Assembly (NCBI GenBank): GCA_045536565.1
Contig: JAZSNU010000017.1
Span: 36,812-68,811 of the forward strand
Direction of reading: 5' to 3'
Source: Clostridia bacterium
Lineage (GTDB): Bacteria > Bacillota > Clostridia > TANB77 > CAG-465
Length of the DNA: 32,000 nucleotides
The position numbers and the translations under genes are program-made. The notes under the pieces were generated by a model, which was not told the origin of the DNA, did not search any database, and saw only the letters and a program-made list of their open reading frames with translations. This document shows positions 4,554 through 26,600 of this stretch, piece by piece. Position 1 is the first letter of the stretch. Each line of letters opens with the position of its first letter.

Positions 4554-5252
4554 CTATTTATCAGAAACAGTATCAAGTTTAAATTCTTTTTTTAGCAGAT
4601 AGATAAGATATCTAAGTCTAGATGCATAATAACTAGAATAAGATTCATCTTCTGCACACTTTTTGCATTCATCTTTCACACATTCGGAAATTTGTTCCAA
4701 GATTAATTCAAGACAATGTGAAAGATAAGTTCTAGTACAATCATAGAGCGGTGTATCTAACAAATCTTCATTTAATTCCTTAAAATCTGATATAAAATCA
4801 TCAATTCTAGGATACTTAAAGACTTCTGCTTTATATGCATTATACATGTCGTTATATTGTTTTGGGATTTTTAACAATGTTTCTCTATATTCTTTGTATC
4901 TTACACATAATTCATCTCTAACAAGAATAACAAACATATTTTCATAAAAAGATAATTTTTCTTCATGGAAAAATTCAATAATATCTCTTTTAAAATTTTT
5001 ATCTAAGAATAGAATAATTTTTTCCACGACTGTATAAACTTTAACCGTCTTTTCATCTTCGGATTCGTTACTAAGCAGAGTATCATATAATGTTCTGTTA
5101 AGTTCACGAAATAGTTTTCTTATAGGAGCCTCAAATTTTTGTTTTTCGTCTTTCGTTAATGCAAAGTACGATGGATGTAGTTTTGATAGAGCAGGAATGT
5201 TTTCAATTGTTTCTTTTAATACTTCTAATTTTTCACCTTTTTGGTATAACAT
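4554..5252 (-). CDS. Hypothetical all-helical protein, paralog of the upstream gene
   Basis: 232-aa ORF with RBS AAGGAGGAG, 14 nt after the stop of the preceding gene. It shares blocks with 5267..5974: YQKGEKLEVLKETI vs YKQGERLEGLKNDI, FFHEEKLSFYENMF vs DFYEEKLNLYNGIY, and LRYLIYLLKKEF vs IRKLLYVLKHEL. No family was recognised. Confidence 0.75.
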   Translation of the reverse strand: MLYQKGEKLEVLKETIENIPALSKLHPSYFALTKDEKQKFEAPIRKLFRELNRTLYDTLLSNESEDEKTVKVYTVVEKIILFLDKNFKRDIIEFFHEEKLSFYENMFVILVRDELCVRYKEYRETLLKIPKQYNDMYNAYKAEVFKYPRIDDFISDFKELNEDLLDTPLYDCTRTYLSHCLELILEQISECVKDECKKCAEDESYSSYYASRLRYLIYLLKKEFKLDTVSDK

Positions 5253-5266
5253 GATAAGTCTCCTCC

Positions 5267-5974
5267 TTATAGTTTTTCTTTTTTAATATTAATTCTTAGT
5301 TCGTGCTTTAATACATAGAGTAACTTTCTTATTCTTCTATATCTTGTTGTATTACTTTCTTCTTTGAAAAATTCTTTTGAAAGCATATTTTGTATTTCTT
5401 CAATCAGAAGTTCGTTGCAGTGATAGATATAATCAAGCGATTTAGATGTGAAATAAAAATGAGTGTTTTGGTTGCTTAATCCGTCCTGCATGTGGTTGTA
5501 CAATGTTGTTAATGAAGTATACTTGGAAAAATCAAATGAATCAATAACAGTTTTTCGAAGTTCTACATACTCATGTGTAATAGAATTTAAAATATCAGTG
5601 TAGCTTGGATAGCCTTTGATTAAGTTGTTTTGAATAAATTCAAAATATATACCGTTGTAGAGGTTTAATTTTTCTTCGTAAAAGTCTCTTTTTAAATCTT
5701 CTACTACATTTTGCTTTAAAAAATCAATTACTTTTTGACAGGCATCTGAAACTTTGTTTGTTTTAATTTCAAGACAGTCTTCGCCAATAACTGTTCTTAA
5801 AAGTACATCATGTAATTGGGTTACAGGTTGTTTTATTTTTTCTGCAAATTTATCGTAATGTTCTTTTGACATGAATAGCTTTGACTTCGCAGGCTCGTTT
5901 TCAAAAATGAATTTTATATCATTTTTTAACCCTTCTAATCTTTCGCCTTGTTTATAATATTTTTTCTCTGACAT
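5267..5974 (-). CDS. Hypothetical all-helical protein, paralog of the downstream gene
   Basis: Start trimmed to Met17 of the track ORF (ATG at 5974), which lies behind AAAGGAGAT and aligns with the start of the paralog. No family was recognised. Confidence 0.72.
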   Translation of the reverse strand: MSEKKYYKQGERLEGLKNDIKFIFENEPAKSKLFMSKEHYDKFAEKIKQPVTQLHDVLLRTVIGEDCLEIKTNKVSDACQKVIDFLKQNVVEDLKRDFYEEKLNLYNGIYFEFIQNNLIKGYPSYTDILNSITHEYVELRKTVIDSFDFSKYTSLTTLYNHMQDGLSNQNTHFYFTSKSLDYIYHCNELLIEEIQNMLSKEFFKEESNTTRYRRIRKLLYVLKHELRINIKKEKL

Positions 5975-6079
5975 ATTAATATCTCCTTTCAAATTATTGT
6001 TTGGTTGAATAGTAATATGCAAATACTATATCATAATAATTGTAAAAAGCAATAGGTTACATAAAATGTGTGATTTTGG

Positions 6080-15311: not shown

Positions 15312-16907
15312 TTATTTTGTAACACTTGTTACATCGTAATAATTATTGGACTCATAACATTTAACATTAATTGTGTCACCGATTTTAACAAGTGGCAAAT
15401 ACTGTTTACCAGAAGTTATACTTGCAATATACAGTTCTTTATCTGAGGACATAATGTAGTAATATGAGTTGCCCTCTATTGTTGCAGTGTAAATTTCTGA
15501 CACAGTTATTTCTTTATCAAGAATCTCTGGTTTAGTAGCATTTAAATTAGATGTATCTTTATTTAATGCTTTCAAATATTCTTGCATTCCGTATTCAACA
15601 CCTAATTTAGATTCTGTAACAGAAAGAATCTGAATGTTTTCAACGGATACAAATGCATACATTTTAACAAGTCCTGCGTTGTCTTTTAATGATAAGAAAT
15701 ATGTTGGAACTCCATTAGCATTAATAAGGATAGGGAAGGTTGAAGAATAATTTAAGTGTTGTACTTGCCCTTTGGCTGAATCCATAGCAGAATATTCCTC
15801 GGCAGATGGCATTTCAAAATATTTTGCTTTGCCAGTTCTCATGTTTACCATCATAAACCCAATGTTAGATTCATCCTGAACAACAGAGGTAATACCAGTG
15901 TACAAATATACATCATTATCAATTGTTACATAGTTATATCCTTCTGTTGATTCTCTTACATTCTTTTGACCGAATATATAATTCCAGAATCCGTTTTCAT
16001 AAGTTCCCCAAGCATCAATCATTTCGACAGCTGTGTTAGCATCAATTGCATGGTCAATCCAAGTTGGAATATTTTTGATATCGTATACCTCGATTTCACC
16101 ATTAATAGGATTTACTAAAATACATCCAGTAGGCATTTTGGCACGACCGATTCCTGCTGTATATCTAAAAGTAGGAACAATATAATATGGATTACCATTG
16201 TCATCAACTTCAAATGAGAAGGTGTCAAATAGTACTGTTCTGAAATTTCTTCTTAAATAACGCTGTAAGTCTTTTCCAAAATATGCAGATGGTGAATATT
16301 TCATACCTTTTTCAAGTCTTACAAATTCTGCTTCTTTTGATATACCATCTACTGTGATATATCCTGGTATACCAAAATGTTTATTACTGTTATACTTAAA
16401 CAAACCAGCATAACCAAGAGGTGAAACTCTAACTGGCTTTCCGCCATAATTTATTTGAGTGTAATTAGTCATTACATTAAACTGAGAAACCTCGTTTGTT
16501 AAAGTTCCCATTTTTCTATTACCTAAAATAGAAGAACTTGCTTTATCAATTTGGGGTACCGTATTCCAATCTACCTGAGGAATTTCTTTTTCAAATGTTG
16601 TTTTTTCTACATCTAATCTTGAATAATGTGCAGAAGAATTACACATAGGTCCGCCTACTAGTACACCTATTAGCAATACTGCAACAAATAGTGCTGTAAC
16701 GCCCCAAGATATACCAGTTGCGATGTATGATTCATATTCTATTGCATCAAATATATTTATACATATACTAAATATTGCGCCAATAGAAATTAGGTAGAAC
16801 CAAAAACCAGGTGATGATAGGTTAAAAGCAGGTAATGCAAAATAGTAAGTTATCCAACTTAAAATAGCAGTGATAGCTGTTGAAACAGCAAATTTAATGA
16901 TTTTCAT
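15312..16907 (-). CDS. Conserved-looking membrane protein: 3 N-terminal TM helices plus a beta-rich extracytoplasmic domain of about 430 aa
   Basis: 531-aa ORF with RBS AAAGGAGAT. The TM segments fall within the first 90 aa. The remainder is rich in G/Y/N/T beta-type sequence. No family name could be assigned with confidence. Confidence 0.75.
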   Translation of the reverse strand: MKIIKFAVSTAITAILSWITYYFALPAFNLSSPGFWFYLISIGAIFSICINIFDAIEYESYIATGISWGVTALFVAVLLIGVLVGGPMCNSSAHYSRLDVEKTTFEKEIPQVDWNTVPQIDKASSSILGNRKMGTLTNEVSQFNVMTNYTQINYGGKPVRVSPLGYAGLFKYNSNKHFGIPGYITVDGISKEAEFVRLEKGMKYSPSAYFGKDLQRYLRRNFRTVLFDTFSFEVDDNGNPYYIVPTFRYTAGIGRAKMPTGCILVNPINGEIEVYDIKNIPTWIDHAIDANTAVEMIDAWGTYENGFWNYIFGQKNVRESTEGYNYVTIDNDVYLYTGITSVVQDESNIGFMMVNMRTGKAKYFEMPSAEEYSAMDSAKGQVQHLNYSSTFPILINANGVPTYFLSLKDNAGLVKMYAFVSVENIQILSVTESKLGVEYGMQEYLKALNKDTSNLNATKPEILDKEITVSEIYTATIEGNSYYYIMSSDKELYIASITSGKQYLPLVKIGDTINVKCYESNNYYDVTSVTK

Positions 16908-17642: not shown

Positions 17643-17695
17643 ATGAGAAAAGAATAGCATATGTTTTTTATGGAGAAAAAGGAAGGAGAATGATA

Positions 17696-18715
17696 ATGGA
17701 AGAAAAATCACTGCAAATAACAAATCATGATTTTTTAATATATAAAGATGGAAATAATGATGTTAAAGTAAGTGTTATATTAATTAATAATGATTTATGG
17801 TTAACGCAAGATTTAATTGCTGAATTGTTTGGTACTGCAAGAAGTACAATTACTGAGCATATAAATAATATATTAAATGATGGAGAATTGTTAGAAGAAA
17901 CTTCCGTCGGAATTTCCGACATAAGTTCTGGTGGAAGAAAACCTAAAATATACAATTTAGATATGATAATTGCTGTTGGATATAGAGTTAATTCTAAAAA
18001 AGCTACTAATTTTAGAATATGGGCTACAAAAGTATTAAAAGAATATATGATAAAAGGTGTAGTTATGGATGATGAAAGATTAAAAAATCCGAACTATATT
18101 TTTGGTGAAGACTATTTTGAAGAAACTCTTGAAAGAATTAGAAATATTCGTTCTAGTGAAAGAAGATTTTACCAAAAGATTACAGATATATATTCACAAT
18201 GTAGTATTGATTATGATAAAGATGCAGAAATAACTAAACATTTTTTTAAAACTGTACAAAACAAGCTGCATTTTGCTATAACTGGTAATACAGCGGTAGA
18301 AATAATATATAATAGAGTAGATTCTGAAAAAGAACATATGGGACTTACAAATTGGAAAAATTCTCCTGATGGACCAATTTATAAATATGATGTGGATATC
18401 GCAAAAAACTATTTAAACGAAGATGAATTAAAAAAGTTAAATAGAATAGTAACAATGTATTTAGATTATGCTGAAATGCAAGCAGAAAATCATAATGCAA
18501 TGACAATGGAAGATTGGGTAGAAAAGTTAAATGCATTTTTACAATTTAATGGAAAAGAGATATTGAAAAATGCTGGAAAAATATCTCAAAGAGTTGCACA
18601 AGAATTAGCATATAAAGAATATGATAAGTTTAAAATAAAACAAGATAAAATGCTTATTTCGGATTTTGATGAATTTGTAAAACAAACAAATTTATTAGAA
18701 AAAAATAAAGAGTAA
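17696..18715 (+). CDS. RhuM-family protein (virulence protein RhuM family, PF13310-like)
   Basis: Characteristic blocks are VSVILINNDLWLTQDLIAELFGTARSTITEHINNI, IYNLDMIIAVGYRVNSKKATNFRIWATKVLKEY and SSERRFYQKITDIY. The start at 17696 lies 6 nt after GGAGA. Confidence 0.85.
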   Translation: MEEKSLQITNHDFLIYKDGNNDVKVSVILINNDLWLTQDLIAELFGTARSTITEHINNILNDGELLEETSVGISDISSGGRKPKIYNLDMIIAVGYRVNSKKATNFRIWATKVLKEYMIKGVVMDDERLKNPNYIFGEDYFEETLERIRNIRSSERRFYQKITDIYSQCSIDYDKDAEITKHFFKTVQNKLHFAITGNTAVEIIYNRVDSEKEHMGLTNWKNSPDGPIYKYDVDIAKNYLNEDELKKLNRIVTMYLDYAEMQAENHNAMTMEDWVEKLNAFLQFNGKEILKNAGKISQRVAQELAYKEYDKFKIKQDKMLISDFDEFVKQTNLLEKNKE

Positions 18716-24058: not shown

Positions 24059-24087
24059 TTGAAATGTTGTTATCTTTATTATAGAAT
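24059..24087 (+). promoter_or_regulatory. Candidate sigma-A promoter for the pilin-like operon
   Basis: TTGAAA (24059-24064), 17-nt spacer, TAGAAT (24082-24087). Confidence 0.45.
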
Positions 24088-24117: not shown

Positions 24118-24609
24118 ATGATTAAAAATAATGGAAAAAGGGCAATAGCATTAATATCATTAGTTTTAGTAATATTAGTGCTTTTGATGATAACAGGATT
24201 AATTACTTATGTAAGTGTGGACATGATAGCAGAAGCAAAAAAAGTTGCTTTTTCAAAAGATATGACTACAATTTATGATTCTGTTCAAGAATATTATGCA
24301 GTAAATGGAGATATACCAGTTCTAGAAGGTGGTTATGAATTAAGTGCAGATGCGTATAGAAATAGTATAACAGAAGCAAGCCATAAAACTGCACTTAATA
24401 CAGAAATAATAAATAACGGGGACGAAGCAGCTACCTTTTATGAAATTGATATGAGTAAATTAGGAATAGAAGAAATGAGTTATGGAGTGAAAAAAACTGC
24501 TACTGATGTATTTTTAGTTTCAAATGTTTCACAAAATATATATTATTATCAAGGAAGAGAATTTAATAACAATATTCATTTTTCGAATTCTTATATTTTA
24601 GAAAAATAA
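24118..24609 (+). CDS. Pilin-like protein A (163 aa): prepilin-type N-terminus without Glu5 plus the shared globular domain
   Basis: N-terminus is MIKNNGKRA/IALISLVLVILVLLMITG. Shared-domain motifs are ATFYEIDMSKLGI and DVFLVSNVSQNIYYYQG. RBS is GGAG. Confidence 0.75.
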   Translation: MIKNNGKRAIALISLVLVILVLLMITGLITYVSVDMIAEAKKVAFSKDMTTIYDSVQEYYAVNGDIPVLEGGYELSADAYRNSITEASHKTALNTEIINNGDEAATFYEIDMSKLGIEEMSYGVKKTATDVFLVSNVSQNIYYYQGREFNNNIHFSNSYILEK

Positions 24610-24626
24610 TATTTAGGGAGGTTTTT

Positions 24627-25799
24627 ATGAATAACAAAAAGGGAATATCACTAGTTATGCTAGTTATTACTATTTTGGTAATGCTGATTTTAGCGTCTGT
24701 TATAGCATTTATCACTGCTGATTCTGTAACAAACGCAAAGTTAGCCGCTTTTGCAACTGATTTAACATCAATTGAGGATACAATTGATGAATATTATTTA
24801 AATAATAATTATTTACCTATTATAGAGGGAGTTACATATAGTAAATCATTAGTAGTATCTTTAATATCGCAAAATTCTGATGTGCTGGCAAGTGAAATTG
24901 CTGAAAATGGTGATGATGATGCCGTCTTTTATAGAGTTGATATGTCAAAATTACCAATTAAATATTCAACTCGTGGAAAAGAGGCAAACGGAGATGCTAC
25001 TGATATATATCTAGTATCAAGTAAAAACTTCAATCTATATTATTTAAAAGGTGTGGAAATATCAGGAGAATGGTATTTTTCGCTTACAGAAAAGTTAACT
25101 GGTAAGACTAAAATTAAGAGTAGTACATCAAATGACACATCAAATATAACTATGACTACTACATCTGGAATTAAACTTACTAAAAATACAACTGATTGGA
25201 CAAATGAGTTAACAGTTAACATACAAACAACATTAAAAACAAATGAAACTATTGAGTATTTTGTAGCAGAAATAGCAGCAGGTACATCAACAACTAGTCC
25301 AGTAAGTGTTAATGTGACTGATATATTAAATAATAACGAAACAATCAGAAATGCTTTTAATACAAGCGAAACTAATAAAGTATTAAAAGTTAATAAATAT
25401 GATACAACAAGTGGTTCTAATGTGCTTATTGCAACAACTGAAATTAAACTTGCTAACCTTGATATATTAGCACCATCTGTTATAGAAACATCTAATATTA
25501 CATACAGTGAATATACTGATTTTATACTTGCTACATTAACAGGAGTAACTGATTTAGGCTCAAGCGGAATAAAAGAAGCAAGAGTGCTTTATACAAAAAA
25601 ATTAGATGACAGTAATAATGAAGTGGCATATTATGAATATTTACCTGCTGAGATAACAGCAGAGTATGTAAAAAATACAGGTAAAACATCAGCATTTAAT
25701 ATGATTAGACTTCCAAAAGATGTTGTTTCATATGTTTTGGTATTTATAGACAATGCTGGAAATATATCTACACCTACTACATATACGGTTAATTATTAA
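24627..25799 (+). CDS. Pilin-like protein B (390 aa): same N-terminus and shared domain, then a T/N/S-rich linker and an Ig-like C-terminal domain
   Basis: N-terminus is MNNKKG/ISLVMLVITILVMLILA. Shared-domain motifs are AVFYRVDMSKLPI and DIYLVSSKNFNLYYLKG. It has 9 N-x-S/T sequons. The C-terminus carries VLVFIDNAGNIS. RBS is GGGAGG. Confidence 0.78.
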   Translation: MNNKKGISLVMLVITILVMLILASVIAFITADSVTNAKLAAFATDLTSIEDTIDEYYLNNNYLPIIEGVTYSKSLVVSLISQNSDVLASEIAENGDDDAVFYRVDMSKLPIKYSTRGKEANGDATDIYLVSSKNFNLYYLKGVEISGEWYFSLTEKLTGKTKIKSSTSNDTSNITMTTTSGIKLTKNTTDWTNELTVNIQTTLKTNETIEYFVAEIAAGTSTTSPVSVNVTDILNNNETIRNAFNTSETNKVLKVNKYDTTSGSNVLIATTEIKLANLDILAPSVIETSNITYSEYTDFILATLTGVTDLGSSGIKEARVLYTKKLDDSNNEVAYYEYLPAEITAEYVKNTGKTSAFNMIRLPKDVVSYVLVFIDNAGNISTPTTYTVNY

Positions 25800-25814
25800 T
25801 AACGGAGGAGTTTT

Positions 25815-26600
25815 ATGAGAAAAGGTATTACAGCGGTGAGTGTATCTATTATGGTTGTTATTATGCTTATTTTAGCAGGAACTGTGTCAATAACTTCATA
25901 TAATAGTATTCAAAGCGCAAACAAAATAACATTTGCACTAGAACTTTCAGAAATTCAAGAACAAGTTACTAGATACTATAAAGATTCTGAATTGGGAGGG
26001 TATCCAATTAGTGATAATGTTTATACAGTAAATTTGGCTAATGTAACTACTAGTTCGCTTACTCAATTTGATAAAGAAAATATAAACTCAAATAATGAAA
26101 TAACTTTATACGAGTTAGACCTTACAAGTATTGGAGTTACAGATACTAAGTATGGCACTAAAAAAACAGATAAAGATGTTTTTGCAGTTTCAACACAAAC
26201 AGGCAGAGTATATTACTTAGAAGGATTAAAATATAACGGGAAAACATATTATACAATCACTAACGATTTAATAGATATAGACCAAAGAAATGAAAATGTA
26301 TCAGATGAGGAAAAAGAATTAATACCACCAGTGATAACTACTGATGGTATTGTAACAAAAACTTTATCATCAGGAGAAAAAGAAATATATGTATCTAATA
26401 TAAAGGTAACAGGCGATGATATACAATATGTAAAATATGAGCTAGGAGAAATTCCAGAAGAAAATGCAGTAGAATATTTTAGAAGTAATGGAAATACTTT
26501 TAATTCTGATAGAATTAGATTAAAAGAGTTAACAACAATAACTATATATGCACAAAACAGTCAAGGAGAATATGACATTGTGTATGTACAAAATAATTAA
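25815..26600 (+). CDS. Pilin-like protein C (261 aa): same N-terminus and shared domain, plus a C-terminal beta domain
   Basis: N-terminus is MRKG/ITAVSVSIMVVIMLILA. Shared-domain motifs are ITLYELDLTSIGV and DVFAVSTQTGRVYYLEG. RBS is ACGGAGGAG. Confidence 0.78.
   Translation: MRKGITAVSVSIMVVIMLILAGTVSITSYNSIQSANKITFALELSEIQEQVTRYYKDSELGGYPISDNVYTVNLANVTTSSLTQFDKENINSNNEITLYELDLTSIGVTDTKYGTKKTDKDVFAVSTQTGRVYYLEGLKYNGKTYYTITNDLIDIDQRNENVSDEEKELIPPVITTDGIVTKTLSSGEKEIYVSNIKVTGDDIQYVKYELGEIPEENAVEYFRSNGNTFNSDRIRLKELTTITIYAQNSQGEYDIVYVQNN

Follow-up and report, generated by a model that had tools for sequence, protein, structure and literature searches.

Tandem modular pilin-like proteins without Glu5 from an uncultured clostridial lineage: probable minor pilins of an atypical type IVa pilus

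Four pilin-like genes and their sequence features

We analysed a stretch of 32,000 nucleotides from an uncultured, low-GC (28%) lineage of Clostridia (contig JAZSNU010000017.1, positions 36,812 to 68,811), hereafter called the window, in which three tandem genes, A, B and C, and a remote fourth gene, D, encode proteins that begin in the manner of type IV prepilins while lacking the glutamate at position +5 from the predicted leader junction (Glu5). The trio lies back to back, with spacers of 17 nt between A and B and 15 nt between B and C, as the first-pass annotation, made from the letters alone, had described; a GGAG-type ribosome-binding site lies 6-8 nt upstream of each start (Table 1). 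The three proteins are paralogous over their first ~155 residues (BLASTP: A/B 38% identity, expectation value (E) 8e-31; A/C 28%, 2e-22; B/C 26%, 2e-15), and the motifs FYxxD(M/L)(S/T)x(L/I), D(V/I)(F/Y)xVS and YYxxG reported for their shared domain are present in A, B and C alike. All four proteins carry a leader of the class III type, short and basic, with Gly or Ala at -1 and followed by ~20 hydrophobic residues; the junctions read KRA/IALIS in A, KKG/ISLVM in B, RKG/ITAVS in C and KRG/ISLIV in D, and in A the leader MIKNNGKRA is followed by IALISLVLVILVLLMITGLITYV and then by the head domain. Canonical bacterial pilins carry a near-invariant Glu at +5 and usually the helix breakers Gly14 and Pro22. 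Position +5 is Ser, Met, Ser and Val in A to D respectively, the N-terminal half of the first helix (alpha1N) in A, B and C comprises ~22 hydrophobic residues after the Gly/Ala with no acidic residue among them, and the tripeptide ILA falls at +15 to +17 in B, C and D, in the register originally claimed.

Table 1. Features of the pilin-like locus, in window coordinates
Feature	Position	Strand	Basis
Promoter-like site TTGAAA-17-TAGAAT, 5' of gene A	24059..24087	+	Consensus scan; sigma-70-like hexamer pair
Gene A, 163-aa single-module Glu5-less pilin-like protein	24118..24609	+	Open reading frame, GGAG ribosome-binding site, AlphaFold2 model, family profile matches
Gene B (whole open reading frame 24627-25799, 390 aa), pilin-like module, residues 1-160, KKG/ISLVMLVITILVMLILA	24627..25106	+	BLASTP to A, E 8e-31; family-profile hmmsearch 2e-55
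Gene B, T/N/S-rich linker and C-terminal module (conserved SGIK...DNAGN motif)	25107..25799	+	Common to B-type orthologues
Gene C (whole open reading frame 25815-26600, 261 aa), pilin-like module, RKG/ITAVSVSIMVVIMLILA	25815..26282	+	BLASTP to A 2e-22, to B 2e-15; hmmsearch 2e-43
Gene C, C-terminal beta-sandwich (Ig/PKD-like), residues ~170-260	26322..26600	+	AlphaFold2 pLDDT ~90; local Foldseek matches
Gene D, 441-aa modular Glu5-less pilin-like protein, major-pilin-type alpha1, weakly FGE-sulfatase-like C-terminal module	28107..29432	+	alpha1 identity to a pilin of a related locus (L079); PF03781, E 0.008

Curated models leave these proteins almost blank. Pfam gives no match to A, B or C at E<=1, and the shared head domain, which had been flagged as unrecognised, maps to no curated family in Pfam or NCBIfam; none of A to D is matched by PF07963 or TIGR02532, the models of the canonical N-terminus. 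Within NCBIfam the trio meets only GspG (TIGR01710) below threshold, at 13-17 bits against a cut-off of 88.85 (E 0.006-0.06), and the match covers the N-terminal helix alone, which does not amount to membership of GspG over the whole domain. In B, C and D the pilin module is succeeded by a separate C-terminal domain, which in D is weakly FGE-sulfatase-like. In gene C the C-terminal module is a confidently modelled beta-sandwich whose best local Foldseek matches are PKD/Ig-like (probability up to 0.93, template-modelling score to the target 0.5-0.59, E not significant), in keeping with the Ig-like module proposed for it. The linker and C-terminal region of B belongs to a full-length homology between B and a 364-aa protein of the related locus L079 (30% identity, E 4e-47), shared also with the B orthologues of L001 and L007. 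The C-terminal domain of D matches PF03781 at 16.3 bits against a gathering threshold of 23.3, over a 16-residue stretch, and is accordingly termed FGE-sulfatase-like only; it has no match among PDB sequences. At 35%, the GC content of D exceeds that of the window and that of A, B and C (27-29%). An enrichment of glycosylation sequons in B was also considered and rejected: the nine N-x-S/T sites noted at first are there, but they do not exceed chance, since shuffling of the composition gives a mean of 7.8 (sd 2.4).

Promoter-like matches are no more frequent in this region than in shuffled sequence, and for the hexamer pair upstream of A the position alone is suggestive. No terminator-like site lies at the A-B or B-C junction, the sole plus-strand match falling within B. 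Cyclic di-GMP riboswitches are known to precede clostridial pilin genes; 5' of A or D, Rfam finds no riboswitch or leader RNA, either at the gathering threshold or at E<=1.

A large family with a conserved junction and pilin homology

Far from being peculiar to a single genome, the trio falls, in an exhaustive search of 1.84 billion representatives (clusters at 50% identity) with a HMMER profile, into a family of at least 4153 such clusters at E<=1e-3, of which 1147 pass E<=1e-10, and the impression of a tiny family given by word-indexed protein searches (11-34 matches) is, by this measure, an artefact of sensitivity. Its members come from gut-associated Clostridia of low GC content, most of them uncultured, and we found neither a description of it in the literature nor a curated Pfam or NCBIfam model for it. 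Among 150 matches listed, the ~160-residue module is whole and N-terminal in nearly all, within proteins of 132-1955 aa. One B orthologue (L058:5192-6946, also protein P0078) carries an insertion of ~200 residues in the pilin module just after alpha1, the profile matching residues 5-68 and 273-376.

The leader junction is conserved across the family far beyond chance. In 139 of the best 148 matches it could be placed automatically; the leaders of these, 6 residues long at the median, have K at -3, K or R at -2, and Gly (132 proteins) or Ala (7) at -1. Beyond the junction, 123 of the 139 have I or V at +1, 128 have S or T at +2 and 104 have L at +3, giving the consensus K-[KR]-G/[IV]-[ST]-L. 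What is missing is equally constant. No Asp or Glu occurs anywhere from +1 to +10 in any of the 139, which, like A to D, therefore have no acidic residue at +5, and in none of them does Gly or Pro occupy +14 or +22. In 66 longer family proteins (B, C and D of the window plus 63 matches) the recognisable C-terminal domains include Laminin_G_3 (6 proteins), FGE-sulfatase (4, E down to 1.4e-7), DUF285, leucine-rich repeats (LRR) and Listeria-Bacteroides/InlB repeats (Flg_new). Taken together, the Ig/PKD-like, ConA-lectin, FGE-sulfatase-like and LRR modules look like the repertoire of adhesins.

Profile comparisons give good support for homology between the family's signal peptide and alpha1 and those of the pilin superfamily. 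With a profile built from single-module family members, hmmsearch of all PDB sequences returned bacterial type IV pilins or pseudopilins for every match at E <= 0.001, and pilins dominate the weaker tail; the best matches are geopilin (2.3e-7), GspG (5wda, 2e-5), Streptococcus sanguinis PilE1 (2.2e-5) and Neisseria PilE (3e-4), with alignments that span the -1 Gly and alpha1 up to a common Y-Y-x-x-N-x-x-x-P segment. Profile-profile alignment by hhalign against canonical PF07963/PF08334 GspG-like pseudopilins gives 97.8% probability (E 1.1e-12, 68 columns), sets the hydrophobic +5 residue of the family opposite the canonical Glu, and ends after alpha1; PF08334 itself is matched, weakly, by one family member. 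The AlphaFold2 model of A (predicted local distance difference test score, pLDDT, 84) consists of a continuous helix over residues 5-63 (59 residues), two short helices, an alpha-beta loop and a head with a 4-5-stranded sheet, and thus has the predicted lollipop shape of a pilin. The pilin-like nature first suggested for these proteins is upheld by the in-register alignments, with which the predicted shape of A is in keeping, and the head domain of the family is a new, unannotated variant.

Gene neighbourhoods in relatives and in the window

The order addA-A-B-C is kept in three relatives (L001/L006, L007 and L058), where the FGE-sulfatase-like module borne by gene D in the window is part of the C orthologue, and where Asp23 and recG directly follow the cluster. 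A module that stands separately on D (28107-29432) and is fused to the C orthologue elsewhere (L007:6925-8607, L001:12058-13722 and L058:6961-8718) indicates domain shuffling between pilin scaffolds, and because of this fusion we group D with the cluster, to which it appears to be functionally tied. In other loci, too, the FGE-sulfatase-like module is the one most often fused to the family pilin module. A small gene together with two modular ones recurs as a set after truB in another lineage (L061, L063/64) and in other arrangements, often beside addA (L072/73, L077/81), and single family genes also stand alone among housekeeping genes. Family genes repeatedly adjoin addA, upstream or downstream, in several lineages (L065-L071, L077, L081, L082, L024), with recG and Asp23 recurring nearby.

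Linkage to pilus machinery emerged from a metagenome scan with a B-type alignment, which gave 55 further loci, mostly from human or animal gut and many of them short, and from their screening with the family hidden Markov model, motif searches and phmmer. Genes for type IV pilus assembly are linked to Glu5-less pilin genes in five of them (L079, L092, L090, L108 and L111). In L079 a single strand encodes, in order, two family proteins (364 and 153 aa), Asp23, PilM/N, PilO, a 151-aa protein, a 115-aa pilin, a PilD N-domain, a 142-aa pilin, PilB (T2SSE, 6e-98), PilT and PilC. The 115-aa pilin is Ala-rich, Glu5-less and of the major type, beginning MKKG/ISLIVLVITIIVLAILAG, and the 142-aa pilin likewise lacks Glu5. 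The Asp23 of this locus is 82% identical to that of the window, and D shares 67% identity with the 115-aa pilin over its first 58 residues. L092 has, in this order, a major-type pilin, a 145-aa protein with A24_N_bact alone, a pilin-like protein with the junction KKG/MIAAE, another pilin, PilB, PilT and PilC (T2SSF). In L090, L108 and L111, PilM/N-PilO or PilC adjoin Glu5-less pilin genes or lie within about 5-9 kb of them. The linked machinery is, as judged from its domains, of the bacterial type IVa pilus (T4aP) type, with PilM/N/O, PilT and A24_N_bact, and the absence of machinery beside the trio characterises the local synteny in this lineage, not the family. The first-pass annotation, which had recommended a profile search and a record of neighbourhoods in relatives, was right that the window holds no pilus machinery, but this does not extend to the family.

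Two peculiarities of the linked clusters deserve separate mention. The PilD homologues (L079:15555-16373 and L092:537-974) match A24_N_bact (PF06750) only, with E ~1e-29, and have no Peptidase_A24 domain; in L079 the reading frame runs on into a pilin-like C-terminal half (KKAGG/LNVDIV...). Directly after the truncated PilD of L092 lies the sole pilin-like gene seen with an acidic +5 residue (p134, L092:943-1347, KKG/MIAAEILV), and a single subunit with Glu5 is the reverse of the usual pattern, in which one subunit is without it.

The rest of the window is housekeeping in character. The trio is flanked by an AddA-type helicase-nuclease on one side, assigned through a 64%-identical orthologue with UvrD-helicase and PDDEXK_1 domains, and by a dCMP deaminase on the other; the flanks had been named addA and comEB, of which the former stands and the latter is merely the deaminase. 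Among 185,579 species representatives this AddA has three relatives at 59-62% identity, the next being at ~37%, and a scan of genome contigs with protein A gave no match. The window also encodes an RluA-type synthase, an RF-2-like factor, RNase J, GluRS, IleRS, a cysteine desulfurase-like enzyme, GNAT, RhuM, UDG, a YlqF-like GTPase, Asp23 and RecG. Five other reading frames of the window have no Pfam match, and on reading none resembles a pilus component, a polytopic peptidase or a platform protein; they include two tandem paralogues on the minus strand (4554-5252 and 5267-6022; 29% identity, E 3e-22), which look soluble and helical, and a 531-aa protein with N-terminal transmembrane helices (15312-16907, minus strand). 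The RhuM-family gene (17690-18715; PF13310, E 8e-109) lies between the GNAT and UDG genes and is a stable resident rather than a recent insertion, since the equivalent position holds it in L001. Rfam at the gathering threshold matches nothing across the 32 kb, including no T-box leader 5' of the genes for GluRS (7631) and IleRS (9307), an absence that is unusual for Firmicutes. A phage origin was considered and rejected, tblastn of B and D against 50,697 phage records giving no match and PHROG only two weak, sub-threshold matches (E 0.008 and 0.002), to which that resource assigns no function.

Interpretation and comparison with known systems

We propose that A, B and C, together with D, are modular minor pilins belonging to a large division of the bacterial type IV pilin superfamily that has so far gone unannotated and that serves an atypical T4aP lineage, a reading to which we give a probability of roughly 0.6. 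The proteins would follow a common plan, in which a class III-type signal peptide leads into alpha1N, the C-terminal half of the helix (alpha1C) and a small beta-sheet head, onto which B, C and D have grafted their C-terminal modules. They would insert into the membrane through alpha1N, lose the leader to a prepilin peptidase encoded elsewhere, and be incorporated by a T4aP-type machine (PilB/PilT/PilC/PilM/N/O) like that of the related contigs. The one small and two modular subunits would most likely form a minor-pilin complex, probably at the tip, that primes assembly and displays the adhesive modules; the major subunit of the filament bearing it would also be Glu5-less. The most economical reading makes all four proteins pilins of a T4aP lineage in which almost every pilin has dispensed with Glu5.

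Several observations weigh against this proposal. Within the window there is no PilB/T, PilC or A24 peptidase, by Pfam on the 20 other open reading frames, by motif scan and by phmmer with the machinery proteins of related loci, nor is there a prepilin peptidase or a small major pilin, and the same elements are missing from the syntenic loci of the three relatives; the slot between Asp23 and recG, which holds a pil cluster in L079, holds gene D alone in the window. Linkage to assembly genes was found in only five of the 55 metagenomic loci, and even in linked clusters leader cleavage is unproven because their PilD homologues are without the A24 protease domain. On the structural side, the comparison that had been advised gave a mixed outcome: model A is pilin-shaped, but its Foldseek search of the PDB returned no significant neighbour, with C. 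difficile PilA1 (6t8s) on top, and neither did that of model C, the N-terminal module of which is of low confidence because the alignment is shallow. All family sequences come, moreover, from metagenome-assembled genomes or metagenomes. Finally, Glu5 is regarded as the near-universal signature of bacterial type IV pilins, is built into PilFind, PF07963 and TIGR02532, and in models of pilus assembly is paired through a salt bridge with the N-terminal amine of the subunit next to it; its absence from nearly every pilin-like gene seen (p134 of L092 being the exception) conflicts with this accepted role.

These difficulties lend some weight to the idea that the proteins are exapted pilin scaffolds retained as uncleaved signal anchors, the helix tethering adhesin-like or wall-spanning proteins in the cytoplasmic membrane where no pilus machine operates and the machinery may have been lost. 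We consider this, the main rival, unlikely, and it keeps its share of our credence because of the empty surroundings in the window and its syntenic relatives, the Asp23-recG slot without a pil cluster included, and because of the protease-less PilD homologues in linked clusters; the absence of Glu5, Gly14 and Pro22 and the many family genes that are solitary among housekeeping genes point the same way. A plain membrane anchor would nevertheless hardly account for a junction so strict that -1 is Gly or Ala after K/R in 139 of 139 cases, with [IV]-[ST]-L beyond it. The linkage of PilB/T/C/M/N/O in related contigs also speaks against it, as does the fact that orthologues of A, B and C have stayed together in different lineages.

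The first-pass annotation had seen in the junction a closer likeness to archaeal class III signal peptides than to bacterial pilins, which would suggest proteins of archaeal origin whose leaders are removed by a FlaK/EppA/PibD-like peptidase. The junction does fit the loose archaeal pattern [KR][GA][ILV][ST], and absence of Glu5 is the rule in archaeal pilins. That claim is nevertheless disfavoured and the origin highly improbable: no archaeal pilin or class III Pfam model (PF04021, PF07790) is matched at E<=1, no archaeal protein appears among the PDB matches, and G/[IV][ST]L[IV] is the bacterial G/FTLIE except at +1 and +5. With all significant matches bacterial, and with linked machinery that is bacterial T4aP with an A24_N_bact domain, the archaeal reading is unsupported. 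More plausible, if still improbable, is a role as pseudopilins in a type II secretion-like or Com-like apparatus, where a short pseudopilus spanning the periplasm or wall would serve protein export or DNA uptake and not adhesion. GspG indeed provides the best matches to curated models (TIGR01710, PF08334 in one member, 5wda), and Clostridium perfringens is reported to use type IV pilus genes for secretion (PMC11580942). Such an apparatus would sit poorly with the PilT-type retraction ATPase and PilM/N/O of the linked clusters, which are T4aP-like, and with the lectin, LRR or Ig modules on family members, which are typical of adhesins; nor was a ComGA/ComEC context found, the supposed comEB being only the deaminase gene.

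The minor-pilin reading can be extended into a wider proposal that we advance tentatively, holding it possible and somewhat doubtful: a clade of gut Clostridia may run a T4aP machine with nearly all pilins lacking Glu5 and the Gly14/Pro22 breakers, including a small Ala-rich major subunit and a large repertoire of modular adhesin-pilins, with a cluster-encoded PilD without its aspartyl-protease domain and with the A-B-C trio as the conserved priming and adhesive complex. If so, subunit docking, the handling of charge in the filament core and perhaps leader processing would differ from those of all characterised bacterial type IV filaments, and a Glu5-less clostridial T4aP would have converged on the archaeal solution. 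The truncated PilD raises the question of how, or whether, the prepilins are processed. Independently of this proposal, a family of thousands of clusters that is invisible to Glu5-based tools, yet stands beside a complete T4aP gene set in some genomes, means that the pilin repertoires of gut Clostridia are under-annotated, and it offers a natural bacterial system in which the need for Glu5 can be tested. It also makes many putatively pilus-borne lectin, LRR and Ig modules recognisable from sequence, which are likely to be adhesins that bind host or glycan targets for gut bacteria not yet in culture.

Among known systems the closest parallel is the three-pilin operon PilA-PilB-PilC of S. sanguinis, whose products have been proposed to combine at the tip in a complex which primes assembly and presents adhesive modules (PMC9934059, PMC8179133), and in which PilA is a small, degenerate pilin without Glu5 that escapes PilFind and Pfam (PMC9934059; PMC10191384). 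Both systems belong to monoderm hosts and combine one small Glu5-less pilin with two modular ones, which in S. sanguinis bear vWA and ConA-like lectin domains, and ConA-like modules occur in the present family as well. In S. sanguinis, however, PilA alone lacks Glu5, PilB, PilC and the major pilins being canonical, whereas here the trio, D and the putative major pilins of related loci are all without it; the S. sanguinis genes lie within a pil locus with PilD, whereas those of the window stand apart from machinery, and no sequence homology between the head domains is detectable. The tip minor (pseudo)pilins of the GspK/PilK type are likewise members of the pilin superfamily without Glu5, which has been explained by their tip position with no subunit above (PMC10191384), but there is one per system beside Glu5-bearing partners, against a loss that is family-wide here (0 of 139). 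Archaeal type IV pilins and class III proteins, such as those of the Sulfolobus bindosome, share the absence of Glu5 and the placing of one kind of signal peptide on varied functional domains; they differ in giving no sequence match and in that the machinery linked to our family is bacterial (PilM/N/O, PilT, A24_N_bact). The clostridial T4aP of C. difficile (PilA1) and C. perfringens comes from the same host class and has the same set of PilB, PilT, PilC, PilM/N/O and PilD, and PilA1 is the top, non-significant Foldseek match of model A (E 0.78); its pilins are, in contrast, canonical G/FTLxE proteins that match PF07963/TIGR02532, and its PilD has both domains. Set beside these systems, the family is a variant within the type IV and modular pilins rather than a new kind of system.

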